This document shows, in pieces, positions 2,331 through 39,615 of a stretch of 64,000 nt of DNA. The notes beneath the pieces are model-generated. The model was not told where the DNA came from. It did no database searches and worked only from the letters and a program-made list of their open reading frames with translations. The stretch's first letter is position 1. Each line of letters starts with the position of its first letter. The DNA comes from Solirubrobacteraceae bacterium (GTDB lineage Bacteria > Actinomycetota > Thermoleophilia > Solirubrobacterales > Solirubrobacteraceae). The stretch is taken from contig JBPCPO010000072.1 of assembly GCA_050999075.1 (NCBI GenBank), positions 16,378 through 80,377 on the forward strand. Direction: 5' to 3'. A program made the translations under genes and the position numbers.

Positions 2331-2339
2331 TGACATAAT
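2331..2339 (+). promoter_or_regulatory. Extended -10 element (TG-a-CATAAT) 6 nt before the GTG at 2346; leaderless-type promoter
   Basis: tgacataat at 2331-2339; no SD before the GTG. Confidence 0.55.
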
Positions 2340-2345
2340 CGTCGC

Positions 2346-2594
2346 GTGCGCTTTCTGCGAATGAAGCCTGGGCACGGAGAGGTCCTGATCGCCGAGGGGG
2401 AGATCGAGATCGCGCAGGACGAAGAGCGCCTGATCCTCGAGTTTCGCCGCCAGCTCGACGCCGGGCTGTGGGCCGCGGTGCCGTTCACCGGCTCTGCGGG
2501 CCGCCGACAAGCCCGGATGGTCAGCTCGTTCGAGGAGATCCCGCGGGACGCCGAGCGCGTGATCTTCTTCCCGCGTGCGGCGGGCGGACGTTAG
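2346..2594 (+). CDS. Small protein with ubiquitin/MoaD-like C-terminus (…[13 protein letters not shown])
   Basis: 82-aa ORF with GC-rich third positions and its own promoter; hydrophobic strand-Pro-x-x-x-GG tail. Confidence 0.75.
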
Positions 2595-2606
2595 GGTCAC
2601 CGGGCA

Positions 2607-3230
2607 GTGCTGCTGGCGCTCGCCGCGACCGCGCTGGTAGCTGTCGCGCTGCTGTCTGATCTGATTCTCCCGCGGCTGGAGGAGGCCTGGGGGCGCCACC
2701 GGGCCCGGCGCCGCCGAACGTCTCCGATCCCCTACGACCCGGGACGGGAACGACGCGCAGAGCAGCGCGCTCGGACGCTGTTGCGCTCATGCGTGAACGA
2801 CGAGGAATGGGCGATGTATCGTGAGCTCGGCTTCATCCGCGTGTGGGGCTCGCAGGCCGACGGTCCCGACGAGGCCGGTGGTACGGGCGGAGCCCCCTAC
2901 GCCTACCTCATCTATCCCCACAAGCCGATCCTCGCCTACCTCGCCCAGACGCACCGGCTCCTGAACGAGTACTGCGTGACCTTTCCTGACCAGACGCGCC
3001 CGTACGGCAGCGCCAGGCTCCCCGATTCCGACGATGTGCTGGCGAAGTGGATGGCTCTCACCGGCGACGAACGAAGGCTGATCGCGACCGCGAACATGCA
3101 CCTGCCCGGTCGCCAGCTCGATCCGGCCCAGCTGACGCGCGATCTCTGGCGGCTCGGGCGGTGGGAGCGTGCCCGCATGCGCGACAGCGCGGGGAGCACC
3201 GGATCGATGCAGATCGATGCCGCCGGCTGA
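2607..3230 (+). CDS. Hypothetical protein with N-terminal membrane anchor, partner of the GG-tail protein
   Basis: 207 aa, starts 12 nt after the previous stop; N-terminal hydrophobic helix; [38 protein letters not shown] segments. Confidence 0.8.
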
Positions 3231-3251: not shown

Positions 3252-4940
<1,689 letters not shown>

Positions 4941-5102: not shown

Positions 5103-6788
5103 ATGGGGATTACTACATATCTATTTCCGAACGCCGATACTGAGTACTCGGCGCAGCAGACGCACACCCGGCTGAACGCCCCCCGGGCGCGGCGTTCACG
5201 GGGCCCGCTGTATGCGATTTCCGGCCTGGTGCTGGCGCTCATCGGCGTGGTCGTCGTTGGCGCGATCGTGTTCGGGTCCGGGCATCCGAGCCTGACCACT
5301 GACTCCCGCGCGCTCGCCCGCGTCGACTTGCCCACCGGCGGCGGCCGGATCGAGACCGTCACCGTCGTGGCGGGCCCGCACAGCCAACGGATCCCGGTCG
5401 ACCTGCGAGGTCACCAGATCTGGCCCCGCGGCCTGATCGCAGCCCATGAGATGGTTTCCATCCAGGCGGTGGTCAAGCGACCCGGCTGGATCTCCTGGCT
5501 GGCCGGCAGCACCCAGCGCGTGCACCTCACGCTGATGACCCCGAGCGCGAGCCTGCGAGAGCACTACCTCACCCTGGCCGCGGGCGCTCCCGTGCAGCTG
5601 CGCTTCAAGTCGCCGGTCCAGTCGATCGCCTACGGGTCGCCCGGCCACCTGGTGCGTCACGTGCTCCCCAACCCGATCAGTCAGATCGCACTCGATCGCG
5701 GTTCGCTCGCCGGGACGATCTCGGTCGCGGCCGCCCCCCGCAGCTGGGAGACCTCCCGGCCGACGACCGTGAGCTGGTTCCCCGCGGGCGCCGGGGCCAG
5801 CGCGGTCTCCTCGCCGGCGCCAGGAAGGCAGATCCTGCCGCAGACCCCGATCATCTTGACCTTCTCCAAGACCGTCGACGCCGCGCTCGGATCCGCCAGG
5901 CCACCCGTCTCCCCGGTCACCGCCGGCAGCTGGCACACGATCGGGAGCCACACGATCATGTTCAAGCCCGAAGGCTACGGCTACGGGCTCGGCGCCACGG
6001 TGAAGATCCCGCTGCCCCACGGCGTCACGCTCCTGGGTAGCCAGTCCGCGCCTGCCAGCACTCCTGCCTCCGCCGCCGGCACGTGGACGGTGCCGGCCGG
6101 ATCGACTATGCGCCTGCAGCAGCTGCTGGCTGGGCTCGGTTACCTACCGGTGCGCTTTGTCTACAGCGGCCCGCGCCCGGCCCTCACCCCCGCCGCGCAG
6201 GAAGCCGCTGCGATCCAGCCGCCCGCGGGAAGCTTCACGTGGCGCTATACCGACACCCCGAGCGCGCTGCGGGGCATGTGGCAGCCGGGCTCCTCTGGCG
6301 TACTGACGCGCGGGGCGGTGATGGCGTTCGAGAACGACCACGGGATGACCACCGACGGGCTCGCCGGCGCCACCGTGTGGCGCGCCCTCTTCGCCGCCGC
6401 GCTCGCGGGACACGGCTCGACCTTCGGCTACTCGTTCGTGTCGGTCAACCAGGGCTCGGAGTCACTCAGCCTGTGGCACAGCGGCCACACGGTCCTGAGC
6501 ACGCCGGTCAACACCGGGATCGCCTCGGCCCCGACGGCCAACGGCACCTATCCCGTCTACGAGCACATCGCCTCGGGCACGATGAGCGGCAAGAATCCCG
6601 ACGGGAGCACGTACAACGATCCCGGAATCCAGTTCATCAGCTACTTCAACGGCGGCGATGCGCTGCACGCGTTCACGCGCGCGCAGTACGGCTCTCCGCA
6701 GAGCCTCGGGTGCGTCGAAATGGCGCTCGGGCCGGCGGGCGAGGTTTGGCCTGACACGCCGATCGGCACGATCGTGAACGTCAACTAG
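5103..6788 (+). CDS. L,D-transpeptidase family protein (TM, Ig-like, peptidoglycan-binding, YkuD domains)
   Basis: N-terminal TM; LQQLLAGLGY…AVMAFENDHGMTTDGLAG PG-binding motif; C-terminal ALHAF…SLGCV; start codon uncertain. Confidence 0.85.
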   Translation: MGITTYLFPNADTEYSAQQTHTRLNAPRARRSRGPLYAISGLVLALIGVVVVGAIVFGSGHPSLTTDSRALARVDLPTGGGRIETVTVVAGPHSQRIPVDLRGHQIWPRGLIAAHEMVSIQAVVKRPGWISWLAGSTQRVHLTLMTPSASLREHYLTLAAGAPVQLRFKSPVQSIAYGSPGHLVRHVLPNPISQIALDRGSLAGTISVAAAPRSWETSRPTTVSWFPAGAGASAVSSPAPGRQILPQTPIILTFSKTVDAALGSARPPVSPVTAGSWHTIGSHTIMFKPEGYGYGLGATVKIPLPHGVTLLGSQSAPASTPASAAGTWTVPAGSTMRLQQLLAGLGYLPVRFVYSGPRPALTPAAQEAAAIQPPAGSFTWRYTDTPSALRGMWQPGSSGVLTRGAVMAFENDHGMTTDGLAGATVWRALFAAALAGHGSTFGYSFVSVNQGSESLSLWHSGHTVLSTPVNTGIASAPTANGTYPVYEHIASGTMSGKNPDGSTYNDPGIQFISYFNGGDALHAFTRAQYGSPQSLGCVEMALGPAGEVWPDTPIGTIVNVN

Positions 6789-7782: not shown

Positions 7783-8562
7783 GTGGAAACCAACGTCAAG
7801 GCGATCGAGCTCCGAGACCTGTGGAGGCGCTACAAGTCCTCCGACGACGAGCGCGCGCGCGAGCGGCTGGTCGTCGCGTACTCGCCGCTGGTCAAGTACG
7901 TCGCGGGCCGCATGAGCTCGGGTCTCCCGGCTCACGTCGAGGAGGCCGACCTGATCTCCTACGGCCTCGGCGGGCTGATCTCCGCCATCGCGCGATTCGA
8001 CCTCGCGCGCGAGATCAAGTTCGAGACCTACGCCATCACCCGTATCCGCGGCGCCATCATCGACGAGCTGCGCTCACTCGATTGGGTTCCACGGTCCGTC
8101 CGGGCACGAGCACGGGAGATCGAGCGGGCCAACGTGAAGCTCGAGGCGCGCCTGCGGCGGGCGCCCACCGACGAGGAGATGGCGGCCGAGCTCGAGCTGA
8201 GCCTGGAGGCCTTCCACGACGCGCTGCTGCAGATCTCGAACTCGACCATCGTCGCCCTCGACGAGCTGTGGAGCGTCGCCGACTCGAGTGGCGATCAGAT
8301 CTCGCTGTTGGACACGATTCCTGACCGCGGCGCCCCCGATCCACAGACGCTCGTGGACCAGAGCGAGCTGCGGGATCGGATCGCGGACGCGATCGCCGCC
8401 CTGCCCGAGCGCGAGAAGCTCGTGGTCGCGCTCTACTACTACGAGAACCTGACCCTGCGCGAGATCGGGGAGGTGCTCGGCGTCACCGAGTCGCGAGTCT
8501 CCCAGCTGCACACCAAAGCCGTGCTGCGCTTGCGCTCGAAGCTGACCGGGGAGTTGGATTAG
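7783..8562 (+). CDS. whiG: FliA/WhiG family sigma factor
   Basis: KFETYAITRIRGAIIDELRSLDWVPRSVR; LYYYENLTLREIGEVLGVTESRVSQLH; SD ggggag. Confidence 0.9.
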   Translation: METNVKAIELRDLWRRYKSSDDERARERLVVAYSPLVKYVAGRMSSGLPAHVEEADLISYGLGGLISAIARFDLAREIKFETYAITRIRGAIIDELRSLDWVPRSVRARAREIERANVKLEARLRRAPTDEEMAAELELSLEAFHDALLQISNSTIVALDELWSVADSSGDQISLLDTIPDRGAPDPQTLVDQSELRDRIADAIAALPEREKLVVALYYYENLTLREIGEVLGVTESRVSQLHTKAVLRLRSKLTGELD

Positions 8563-38709: not shown

Positions 38710-39615
38710 GTGCACGAAGAGCGCGAGATCCCACGCGACGAGGCGACGTTCACCGTCAAGGCCGGCTTGGCCGAGATGCTCAAGGGCGGGGTGATCATGG
38801 ATGTCGTCACCGCCGAGGAGGCGAAGATCGCCGAGGATGCGGGCGCCGTGGCGGTGATGGCCCTCGAGCGCGTTCCCGCCGACATCCGGCGTGATGGCGG
38901 CGTGGCCCGGATGTCGGATCCGGCGATGATCCGCGAGATCCAGGCCGCGGTCACGATCCCGGTGATGGCCAAGGCGCGCATCGGGCATTTCGCCGAGGCA
39001 CAGGTGCTCGAGGCGCTCGAGGTCGACTACGTGGACGAGTCGGAGGTCCTGACCCCGGCTGACGACGCCAACCACATCGACAAATGGGCCTTCAAGGTCC
39101 CCTTCGTCTGCGGCGCGACCAATCTCGGTGAGGCGCTCCGGAGGATCGGTGAGGGGGCGGCGATGATCCGCTCCAAGGGCGAGGCCGGCACCGGCGACAT
39201 CGTCGAGGCGGTGCGCCATCTGCGCGTGATCCGAGGCGAGATCCGGCGCCTGGCCACCCTCGACGACGGCGAGCTGGCGACTGCTGCCAAGCAGCTGGGC
39301 GCGCCGCTGCACCTCGTAAGCGGGCTCGCCGCCGACGGGCGCTTGCCCGTGGTGATGTTCTGCGCCGGCGGAATCGCGACGCCGGCCGATGCGTCGCTCG
39401 TCATGCAGCTGGGAGCCGAGGGCGTATTCGTGGGGTCGGGAATCTTCAAGTCAGAGGATCCCGGGCGCCGGGCACGGGCGATCGTCGAGGCGACGACGCA
39501 CTACCGGGATCCCGCGCGCGTGGCGGCGGCCTCGACCGGGCTTGGCCAGGCGATGGTCAGTCTCGAGACCTCCAAGCTCCACGACGAGCAGCTGCTGGCG
39601 CCCCGCGGCTGGTAG
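38710..39615 (+). CDS. pdxS: PLP synthase subunit PdxS
   Basis: [52 protein letters not shown]. Confidence 0.97.

Follow-up and report, generated by a model that had tools for sequence, protein, structure and literature searches.

A gene pair encoding a GG-tailed beta-grasp protein and a membrane-anchored Cys protein in one class of actinobacteria, a possible undescribed carrier or tagging system

In a stretch of 64,000 nucleotides (the window) from a Solirubrobacteraceae bacterium (assembly GCA_050999075.1, contig JBPCPO010000072.1), two adjacent genes encode a small protein with a Gly-Gly tail and a membrane-anchored partner with an invariant Cys. This pair may be an undescribed carrier or tagging system. 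The gene pair itself, a leaderless promoter box, a beta-grasp fold of the small protein, invariance of the Gly-Gly and the Cys, the membrane topology of the partner and a complex between the two proteins are supported by sequence comparison and prediction. The explanation tentatively favoured, with a probability of roughly 0.3, is covalent loading of the Gly-Gly tail on Cys123 of the partner in the manner of a ubiquitin-conjugating enzyme (E2), followed by onward transfer. E2-like loading, a sulfur relay and a non-covalent complex are about equally probable, and the first is favoured because it alone makes use of the fold evidence, the arrangement of a YPxxP turn and the Cys, and the geometry of the predicted complex.

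The gene pair, its promoter and its distribution

The small gene (2346-2594, + strand) has a GTG start at 2346 and a stop codon at 2592-2594, and encodes a predicted beta-grasp protein of 82 residues in which Gly80-Gly81 is followed by Arg82. The partner gene (2607-3230, + strand) begins with GTG at 2607 after a spacer of 12 nucleotides and encodes 207 residues comprising a membrane anchor and a predicted cytoplasmic domain of ∼165 residues. The order of genes in the window is dprA, thiD, the 82-residue open reading frame (ORF), the 207-residue ORF and ilvD, and the coordinates confirmed the initial annotation, made from the DNA sequence alone, that a 207-residue ORF follows an 82-residue ORF by 12 nucleotides between thiD and ilvD. 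The ratio of nonsynonymous to synonymous substitution rates (dN/dS) against 13 orthologues of the same genus was 0.134 for the small gene and 0.146 for the partner gene, with dS of ∼1. The low ratios, combined with conservation across two orders of the class, indicate that both ORFs are genuine genes. The order to which the window belongs is referred to below as the first order and the other as the second order.

An extended -10-like box, TGACATAAT (2331-2339, + strand), ends 6 nucleotides before the GTG start of the small gene, and 24 of 30 orthologous loci had a TG(A/G)CATAAT or GGAATAAT box at exactly this distance from the start. Leaderless mRNAs are common in actinobacteria, and the position of the box implies a leaderless transcript initiated at a promoter belonging to the pair. 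Since the box is conserved at a fixed distance from the start, the pair appears to have its own start signal and not to be a mere tail of thiD. This result is in agreement with the extended -10 promoter initially claimed for the pair, though a scan for two-hexamer sigma-70 promoters gave no match. In one family of the first order (loci L034, L037, L041, L043 and L045) the CATAAT box was found 45-60 nucleotides further upstream, with GGAG and what looks like an ATC start between it and the small gene; the mRNA of these loci is seemingly leadered and its start codon rare.

The tally for the first order comprised 61 related genomes, including the unpublished G025 and G030, on neither of which any conclusion rests; locus L011 of G030 was counted in the per-locus lists and left out of alignments A1 and A2. 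The small gene was found in 49 of the 61 genomes and the partner gene in 50, the fiftieth partner match being marginal (31 residues with an internal stop). Where present, the two genes were without exception neighbours on one strand, the small gene leading, and were separated by 7-30 nucleotides or overlapped by 4 nucleotides; otherwise both were absent. The order dprA-thiD-small-partner-ilvD was found in 15 of 15 loci from other families of the first order, and thiD abuts ilvD in two first-order genomes without the pair, the two genes being missing as a unit. The partner was present in 37 of 81 genomes and 12 of 20 genera of the second order, with the small gene directly upstream in all 25 loci fetched; here the pair is flanked by xseB on one side and by a class-V aminotransferase gene (17/25) or murA (7/25) on the other. 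Adjacency at every examined locus in two orders, together with joint presence or absence, bears out the linkage of the two genes. Across the phylum, the partner profile matched 14 of 401 sampled genomes, all 14 in the window's own class (Thermoleophilia-type), and was not found in ∼370 other Actinomycetota genomes. The partner family is narrow because only 410 clusters were retrieved with the profile from 1.84 billion representative proteins; the longer matches checked among these clusters were read-throughs with IlvD or ThiD and one protein with an N-terminal ChlI domain. Overall, the distribution is that expected of a single-copy, vertically inherited core-genome locus of one class.

The class-V aminotransferase gene of the second order is placed head-to-head with the pair (L060:5188-6366; 17 of the 25 loci L086-L110). 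Its product is related to the SufS/CsdA cysteine desulfurases, scoring far below their equivalog cut-offs. A functional link of the pair to either thiD or the aminotransferase was weakened by the finding that each neighbour is specific to one order, the aminotransferase also being missing from 7 of the 25 loci.

Neither protein matched Pfam or NCBIfam models at E≤1, PADLOC and PHROGs scans with both returned nothing, and profile searches of PDB sequences gave nothing meaningful. Comparison of both models with the PDB using Foldseek produced no match at E≤0.001. A feature search of the ESM Atlas found nothing among named clusters, and a shape search with the partner retrieved only the partner's own family of Actinomycetota hypotheticals. 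The literature search yielded no paper tying this actinobacterial class to ubiquitin-like proteins and none on the pair. With no family model, solved structure or paper found, the pair appears to belong to no described family, consistent with the first impression of the 207-residue protein as one without a nameable family. The further suggestion that similar pairs occur in other bacteria and in phages was not substantiated by sequence, as nothing was found outside the class in the scan across the phylum, nor by tblastn of 50,697 phage records, by a pattern scan of IMG/VR or by a profile search of phage Atu_ph07, and the only resemblances among phage proteins were structural and of weak identity. 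In a Foldseek search of BFVD with the partner model, phage proteins A0A1P8DIP4 (E 2.9e-5, 23% identity), A0A2L0UZL2 (E 8e-4), which is from the Agrobacterium jumbo phage Atu_ph07, and A0A1P8DIR1 were similar in shape; these look-alikes are uncharacterised.

The two proteins and their predicted complex

The AlphaFold2 model of the small protein had a predicted local distance difference test (pLDDT) score of 89.9. All of the 50 best VIA rows for the small protein (50/50) were ubiquitin-like folds, including SUMO and the bacterial BubA, and the protein is predicted to adopt a beta-grasp fold. The tail, V72-I-F-F-P-R-A-A-G-G81 followed by R82 (2559-2591, + strand), has the form of a MoaD/CysO-like last strand ending in Gly-Gly. 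The Gly-Gly, singled out in the initial annotation, proved invariant in 30 of 30 first-order loci and 25 of 25 second-order loci (55/55) as well as in 120 of 120 database homologues. What follows it varied from 0 to 13 residues across the loci. Among the 120 homologues the next residue was R in 74, A in 20, S in 10, C in 4 and none in 5, with at least one residue following the Gly-Gly in 115; a single residue is typical of the window's genus. The Gly-Gly was the exact C-terminus in 12 of 15 first-order loci from families outside that genus, while 23 of 25 second-order loci carried 2-11 hypervariable residues after it and 2 of 25 ended at it.

The PF02597 profile did not match the window's small protein at E≤1 and touched 3 of 29 orthologues with a best E of 0.008, below the cut-off; the same search did recognise, in five near-complete relatives, 3-5 canonical ThiS/MoaD/CysO genes apiece. 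An hhalign comparison with the canonical ThiS/MoaD/CysO proteins encoded in these genomes covered the last 15 residues alone, which aligned to KDGDEVTILPAVAGG (E 0.032, probability 1.6%). A minority of JGI records name the small protein 'molybdopterin converting factor small subunit'. The comparisons indicate a beta-grasp protein with a carrier-type tail that is not a demonstrable member of PF02597, in agreement with the original remark that it did not read like MoaD or ThiS.

The partner begins with a hydrophobic helix at approximately residues 2-24 followed by an Arg-rich stretch at residues 30-38 (2610-2720, + strand), a pattern predicting an N-out/C-in topology. In 29 of 30 orthologues the helix had a mean Kyte-Doolittle value of 2.05-2.9 over 19 residues, with no K/R before it and 4-10 K/R in the next 20 residues. 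According to the positive-inside rule, the globular domain of the partner would be located in the cytoplasm and thus on the same side of the membrane as the small protein, which has no signal. The partner ORF at locus L036 (G048:C58) seemingly has no N-terminal hydrophobic helix; the open frame there is 171-185 residues and overlaps the small gene by 4 nucleotides.

The AlphaFold2 model of the partner (pLDDT 81) contained helices at residues 45-62, 65-74, 140-153, 155-161 and 173-199 and strands at 77-80, 98-102, 108-112 and 118-123. Residue conservation was counted over 52 sequences from both orders. The turn Y103-P104-H105-K106-P107 (2913-2927, + strand), located between strands 98-102 and 108-112, resembles the YPxxxP turn of UBC/RWD folds and was conserved at Y103 (52/52), P104 (51/52), H105 (50/52) and P107 (48/52). 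The sequence E121-Y122-C123 (2967-2975, + strand) ends strand 118-123 and contains the candidate covalent acceptor; E121 and C123 were invariant (52/52), with the Cys also present in all intact database homologues. These results, together with the anchor found in nearly every orthologue, uphold the initial description of a membrane-anchored Cys protein. The segment L138-P-x-x-D142-D143-V-L-A-K147-W148-M ... A162-N163 (3018-3095, + strand) forms the helices predicted to be the main docking site for the sheet face of the small protein. Further residues invariant in all 52 sequences were A51, L58, L74, G75, F76, L101, F126, L138, P139, D142, D143, A146, K147, W148, E155, A162, N163, D179 and W186. 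A papain-type Cys/His/Asp triad with His165 was considered and rejected, as H165 was kept in 28 of 52 sequences, all of the first order, and is absent from the whole second order.

The best fold matches of the partner were to UBC/RWD proteins and all were weak. The first Foldseek rows were Ubc9 (5jne_F, E 0.11), RWD was the top match in one fold search and UEV was also among the matches; BubA and the bacterial E2 8tz0_C were among the weak structural matches of the small protein and partner. The turn of the partner has YPxxP spacing, with Cys123 at the end of the next strand and 17 residues before the long helix. The same YPxxP spacing occurs within the YPxxPP of UbcH5. No UBC-clan Pfam family matched any of 28 partner members even at E≤10, and the sole recurrent weak Pfam match was DUF6400, on the N-terminal helices (residues 37-74), in 13 of 28 orthologues, with a best E of 0.0043 and 17 bits against a cut-off of 27. 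An HPN motif was not found upstream of Cys123, where positions 113-120 are variable in the alignment. The UBC superfamily is characterised by a four-stranded meander flanked by helices, a YPxxxP turn connecting strands 3 and 4, and a catalytic Cys on a flap after the meander (PMC3173227). Many prokaryotic E2-like families are also without the canonical HPN (PMC1779556). The odds that the partner has a UBC-like origin are estimated as roughly even.

A complex of the small protein and partner was predicted with an ipSAE of 0.87 (runs 0.83, 0.88 and 0.87), compared to 0.01 for the best of three controls. Of 80 solved complexes, 58 reached the pass mark applied, as did 2 of 110 mismatched pairs; these counts are rough in this case since custom alignments were used. 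The runs agreed in at least 88% of contacts with a pLDDT of at least 88 for the partner chain, and a pass from model memory is unlikely because there is no sequence relative in the PDB. The predicted interface comprises residues 4, 6-12, 42, 44, 46, 53-58 and 73 plus tail residues 75-82 of the small protein, and residues 47-67, the Cys loop 123-139 and residues 142-163 of the partner. The contacts of lowest error were between partner residues 142, 145, 146, 148, 149 and 150 and small-protein residues 6, 44, 46, 56, 58, 73 and 75. The Gly-Gly tail was placed on the Cys123 loop, where it had been suggested from the start that it might dock, and nearly all invariant residues of both proteins fell within the interface. 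The predicted arrangement resembles the closed E2~ubiquitin state, where the crossover helix of the E2 is the surface on which ubiquitin packs.

Natural fusions lend independent support to a 1:1 complex. P0307 (L085:1557-2285), a protein of 242 residues encoded after dprA and thiD on a contig of a public metagenome-assembled genome, and P0290 are fusions of the small protein and partner without the anchor, in which a linker of 2-5 residues leads from the Gly-Gly into the partner domain, at its first helix in P0290. In P0307 the elsewhere invariant residues N163 and E155 are changed, and the YP turn, EYC and DDVLAKW are kept. Read-through forms of small protein and partner that keep the anchor are P0301, P0309 and L096. 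A second type of ORF, annotated as ThiD, runs in frame into the small protein with the free Gly-Gly end kept (P0272 from Baekduia soli, 414 residues, P0277, P0293, P0295, P0310 and P0311). P0272 contains an Arg/Ala/Pro-rich stretch before the junction that looks off-frame. The -10 box persists in the linker. The ThiD-small ORFs may be genuine fusions or may reflect lost stop codons or assembly indels.

Possible modes of action

In the favoured explanation, the two genes would be expressed as one operon from their own leaderless promoter and the products would bind each other obligately at 1:1 on the cytoplasmic side of the membrane. The small protein would rest with its sheet face on helices of the partner, its Gly-Gly tail directed into the loop carrying the invariant Cys123. 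The layout of the partner, with N-terminal helices, a beta-meander containing the YPHxP turn, the Cys on the following strand and then helices, would be UBC/RWD-like and of the E2 type. Residues beyond the Gly-Gly, where present, would be trimmed in a first step, and the terminal Gly would then be activated in trans by the activating enzyme (E1) of the kind present in relatives. Cys123 would then take up the activated tail in a thioester, as an E2 does with ubiquitin, before the tag is handed to an acceptor at the membrane. The homology of the partner to E2s, the activation by an E1, the covalent intermediate and the target are what we infer.

The availability of an E1 bears on this proposal. 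The window contains no E1, JAB or MoaE, as first reported, and the sole ThiG signal is a partial match (PF05690, profile positions 170-225, 27.7 bits) at ∼39325-39498 inside an open frame of 374 residues, the product of which is more likely a different TIM-barrel enzyme than a thiazole synthase. The genome from which the window derives is 73% complete; ThiF and Prok-JAB were not found in it, and MoaD/MoaE are encoded on another of its contigs. In each of the five near-complete relatives (G027, G037, G043, G051 and G059; 91-97% complete), one strong ThiF-type E1 is encoded next to a ThiS-family gene and within a few kilobases of a single JAB. The E1 of G027, which is of the same genus as the window, is a rhodanese-ThiF protein of 392 residues whose gene has those of a CysO-like protein, a PALP enzyme and the JAB as neighbours. 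In the second order an E1 was found in 77 of 81 genomes, usually exactly one, with or without the pair. A comparison of E1 count with presence of the pair was uninformative, there usually being one E1 per genome either way. Shared E1s operate in the MoeZ, TtuC, UbaA and Uba4 systems. The pair likewise has no dedicated E1 and could draw on a shared E1 available in trans. The initial idea of a minimal E1-free system finds no support in the near-complete relatives, which mostly carry a single ThiF-type E1, in G027 within the CysO-like/PALP/JAB cluster. The same five relatives gave no match to the Pup ligase (PafA/Dop, PF03136), and from this absence the first order may be without pupylation.

Several findings weigh against E2-like loading. 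The partner has neither a UBC-clan Pfam match nor the HPN motif, and no E1, E3 or JAB is linked to the pair. The E1 examined, that of G027, carries a rhodanese domain and is of the type that makes thiocarboxylates. The 0-13 variable residues after the Gly-Gly and the direct fusions with a linker of 2-5 residues suggest that a free terminus is perhaps not needed. Finally, although invariance inside the predicted interface supports the complex, binding alone could explain the conservation. An extension of the E2-like proposal, unlikely as it stands, is a housekeeping, chromosomally fixed ubiquitin-like conjugation system of free-living bacteria in which a membrane E2-type enzyme, charged via the single sulfur-type E1, would transfer the Gly-Gly tag onto membrane proteins or a lipid head group in the manner of Atg8/Atg3, with no dedicated E1, E3 or deconjugating enzyme.

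The rival closest behind, itself tentative, is a purely non-covalent heterodimer in which the small protein would be a structural or regulatory beta-grasp subunit of a tethered protein, the Gly-Gly threading a narrow groove and Cys123 serving as a packing residue, with no activation, trimming or transfer. The mapping of invariant residues almost wholly to the predicted interface is as expected for such a heterodimer, as is the freedom of the residues after the Gly-Gly to vary from 0 to 13, two of 25 second-order proteins ending at it. It is also consistent with fusions that join the Gly-Gly to the first helix of the partner via 2-5 residues with no evident need for cleavage, with the lack of a linked dedicated E1, protease or E3, and with the inclusion among UBC-like folds of the non-catalytic UEV and RWD binders, RWD being the top match. 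However, 12 of the 15 first-order loci outside the window's genus stop at the Gly-Gly like mature carriers, and Cys123 is conserved in 52 of 52 sequences over two orders whereas neighbouring residues are variable. Among beta-grasp proteins, to our knowledge, only adenylated carriers and modifiers end in a hydrophobic strand-Pro-x-x-x-GG, which was counted against this alternative, and the alternative offers no function.

Third by a small margin, and likewise tentative, is a sulfur relay or carrier-plus-synthase system like MoaD-MoaE or ThiS-ThiG. Here the rhodanese-ThiF would make a thiocarboxylate at the Gly-Gly, with the sulfur passed, in the pocket of Cys123, either to a substrate near the membrane or to Cys123 itself as an acyl-persulfide. 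The cluster containing the rhodanese-ThiF of G027 and the presence of mostly one ThiF-type E1 per relative agree with this proposal, as does the tail D/E-x-V-x-F-F-P-x-x-x-GG, which is the one stretch alignable to the canonical MoaD/CysO encoded alongside it in these genomes. PF02597 gives a sub-threshold match (best E 0.008) to three of 29 small proteins, and some JGI records carry the molybdopterin converting factor name. The location, a core single-copy locus by thiD/ilvD or, in 17 of 25 second-order loci, head-to-head with a cysteine-desulfurase-like class-V aminotransferase, also fits, and the 1:1 fusions recall those of MoaD-MoaE. Our prior, that most bacterial beta-grasp proteins with a Gly-Gly tail known to us are sulfur carriers, was counted in its favour. 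Nevertheless, the partner is unlike MoaE, ThiG, CysM and TtuA and its best fold matches are UBC/RWD, the genomes already contain canonical ThiS, MoaD and CysO, and full-length homology to these carriers is undetectable (hhalign probability 1.6%). Moreover, the aminotransferase is absent from 7 of 25 loci, linkage to thiD is absent in the second order, and no candidate substrate is suggested.

The initial annotation had proposed an E1-independent, sortase-like Cys peptidase or transpeptidase that cleaves after the Gly-Gly, forms an acyl-enzyme and ligates the tag to a membrane protein or lipid. The N-terminal anchor ahead of a domain with a Cys, the predicted placement of the tail on the Cys loop, residues following the Gly-Gly in 115 of 120 close homologues and 23 of 25 second-order loci, the conservation of His105 (50/52) with invariant D142, D143 and N163, and the lack of a linked E1 are all compatible with such an enzyme. 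It is nevertheless improbable, since the 12 of 15 first-order loci outside the window's genus that end at the Gly-Gly would have no scissile bond as an energy source, no peptidase fold was among the matches of the partner, and the second order lacks His165, a member of the triad suggested. Cleavage between Gly-Gly and Arg by the partner accordingly fared poorly, the fold being UBC/RWD-like rather than peptidase-like and His165, unlike His105, being kept in only 28 of 52 sequences.

That the small protein is an ordinary ThiS or MoaD serving thiamin or molybdopterin synthesis, and lies beside thiD by chance, is highly improbable, since against its position right after thiD in all first-order loci examined, the in-frame ThiD-small read-through ORFs and the MoaD-like tail stand the blindness of PF02597 to the protein, the 3-5 canonical ThiS/MoaD/CysO genes elsewhere in relatives, the hhalign probability of 1.6%, the pair's own promoter box, its location away from thiD in the second order, and the first-order genome G040, which is without the pair and has ThiS-like and ThiG-like ORFs (identified from reading frames only) right after thiD. 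Of the initial caution that the small protein might be a plain ThiS/MoaD with a cognate E1 elsewhere in the genome, the first part did not hold and the second did in so far as a shared E1 exists in relatives.

Genomic neighbours and known systems

Upstream of the pair in the window are dprA (240-1328, TIGR00732) and thiD (1390-2304), the latter forming the upstream flank, and ilvD (3252-4940) forms the downstream flank. Downstream of ilvD is a protein of 561 residues with an N-terminal hydrophobic segment and no NCBIfam match (5103-6788), followed by xerC, named from its sequence alone, and then a WhiG/FliA-type sigma factor (7783-8562; NF004935, E 1.9e-109).

The pair resembles the MoaD/ThiS/CysO (PF02597) systems with MoeB/ThiF/MoeZ E1s in having a small beta-grasp protein with a last strand and Pro-x-x-x-Gly-Gly tail, and in the presence of a rhodanese-ThiF E1 and JAB in the genome of a close relative. 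As in MoaD-MoaE synthases, the tail is predicted to insert into the subunit encoded next door, and carrier and partner are occasionally fused. The pair differs in having no profile-level homology past the last 15 residues, often with variable residues after the Gly-Gly, and in a partner that is unrelated to MoaE/ThiG/CysM, is membrane-anchored, contains an invariant Cys and has no linkage to an E1. The Urm1-Uba4, TtuB-TtuC and SAMP-UbaA systems likewise employ one shared MoeB-type E1 (with rhodanese in Uba4) for several Gly-Gly proteins and have no E2/E3 nearby, and in these one protein can serve as sulfur carrier as well as protein tag. However, none of them encodes a dedicated partner with a Cys next to the carrier, and none is membrane-tethered.

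Similarities to the E2/UBC systems, among them Ubc6/UBE2J and Atg8-Atg3, include a beta-grasp protein with Gly-Gly that is sometimes a precursor with extra residues, and membrane anchoring. They extend to the UBC/RWD/UEV fold matches, the YPxxP turn, the Cys on the strand after the putative meander and ∼17 residues before a long helix, and the predicted packing of the small-protein sheet face on the long helix with the tail toward the Cys. In contrast to E2s, the partner lacks the HPN motif and a UBC-clan profile match and has its anchor at the N-terminus; there is no dedicated E1, E3 or deconjugating enzyme, and the predicted 1:1 complex is stable and fused in some lineages. The Bil, Bub and CBASS Cap2/Cap3 operons, which encode E1, E2 and JAB (Iyer, Burroughs and Aravind 2006, PMC1779556), also combine a bacterial ubiquitin-like protein with an E2-like protein. 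Those operons are sporadic, mobile and often linked to defence, and contain E1 and JAB, whereas the pair consists of two genes only, forms a single-copy core locus that is inherited vertically, gave no PADLOC match and is linked to neither E1 nor JAB. The Pup/PafA system, with a disordered tag ending in GGQ/GGE and PafA/Dop, differs in that the small protein is a folded beta-grasp and the Pup ligase was not found in the five relatives.

Bacterial beta-grasp proteins ending in Gly-Gly are known as sulfur carriers tied to an E1 or from mobile E1-E2-JAB operons, several of them antiviral, and the pair fits neither category. It is confined to one class of abundant soil actinobacteria, and its only dedicated partner is a membrane-tethered Cys protein with an E2-like layout. 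The small protein would be a GG-tailed beta-grasp carrier or modifier of a known kind, with a partner that lacks precedent. Both proteins are small, and cultured hosts exist, for example Baekduia soli. If the sulfur relay is true, the pair would point to an unknown sulfur-containing product made at the membrane. If conjugation is true, sulfur-carrier and E2-type tagging chemistry would coexist in one lineage. If the covalent reading favoured here is true, the pair would be an intermediate between sulfur carriers and ubiquitin-type tagging and would bear on the origin of E2s.

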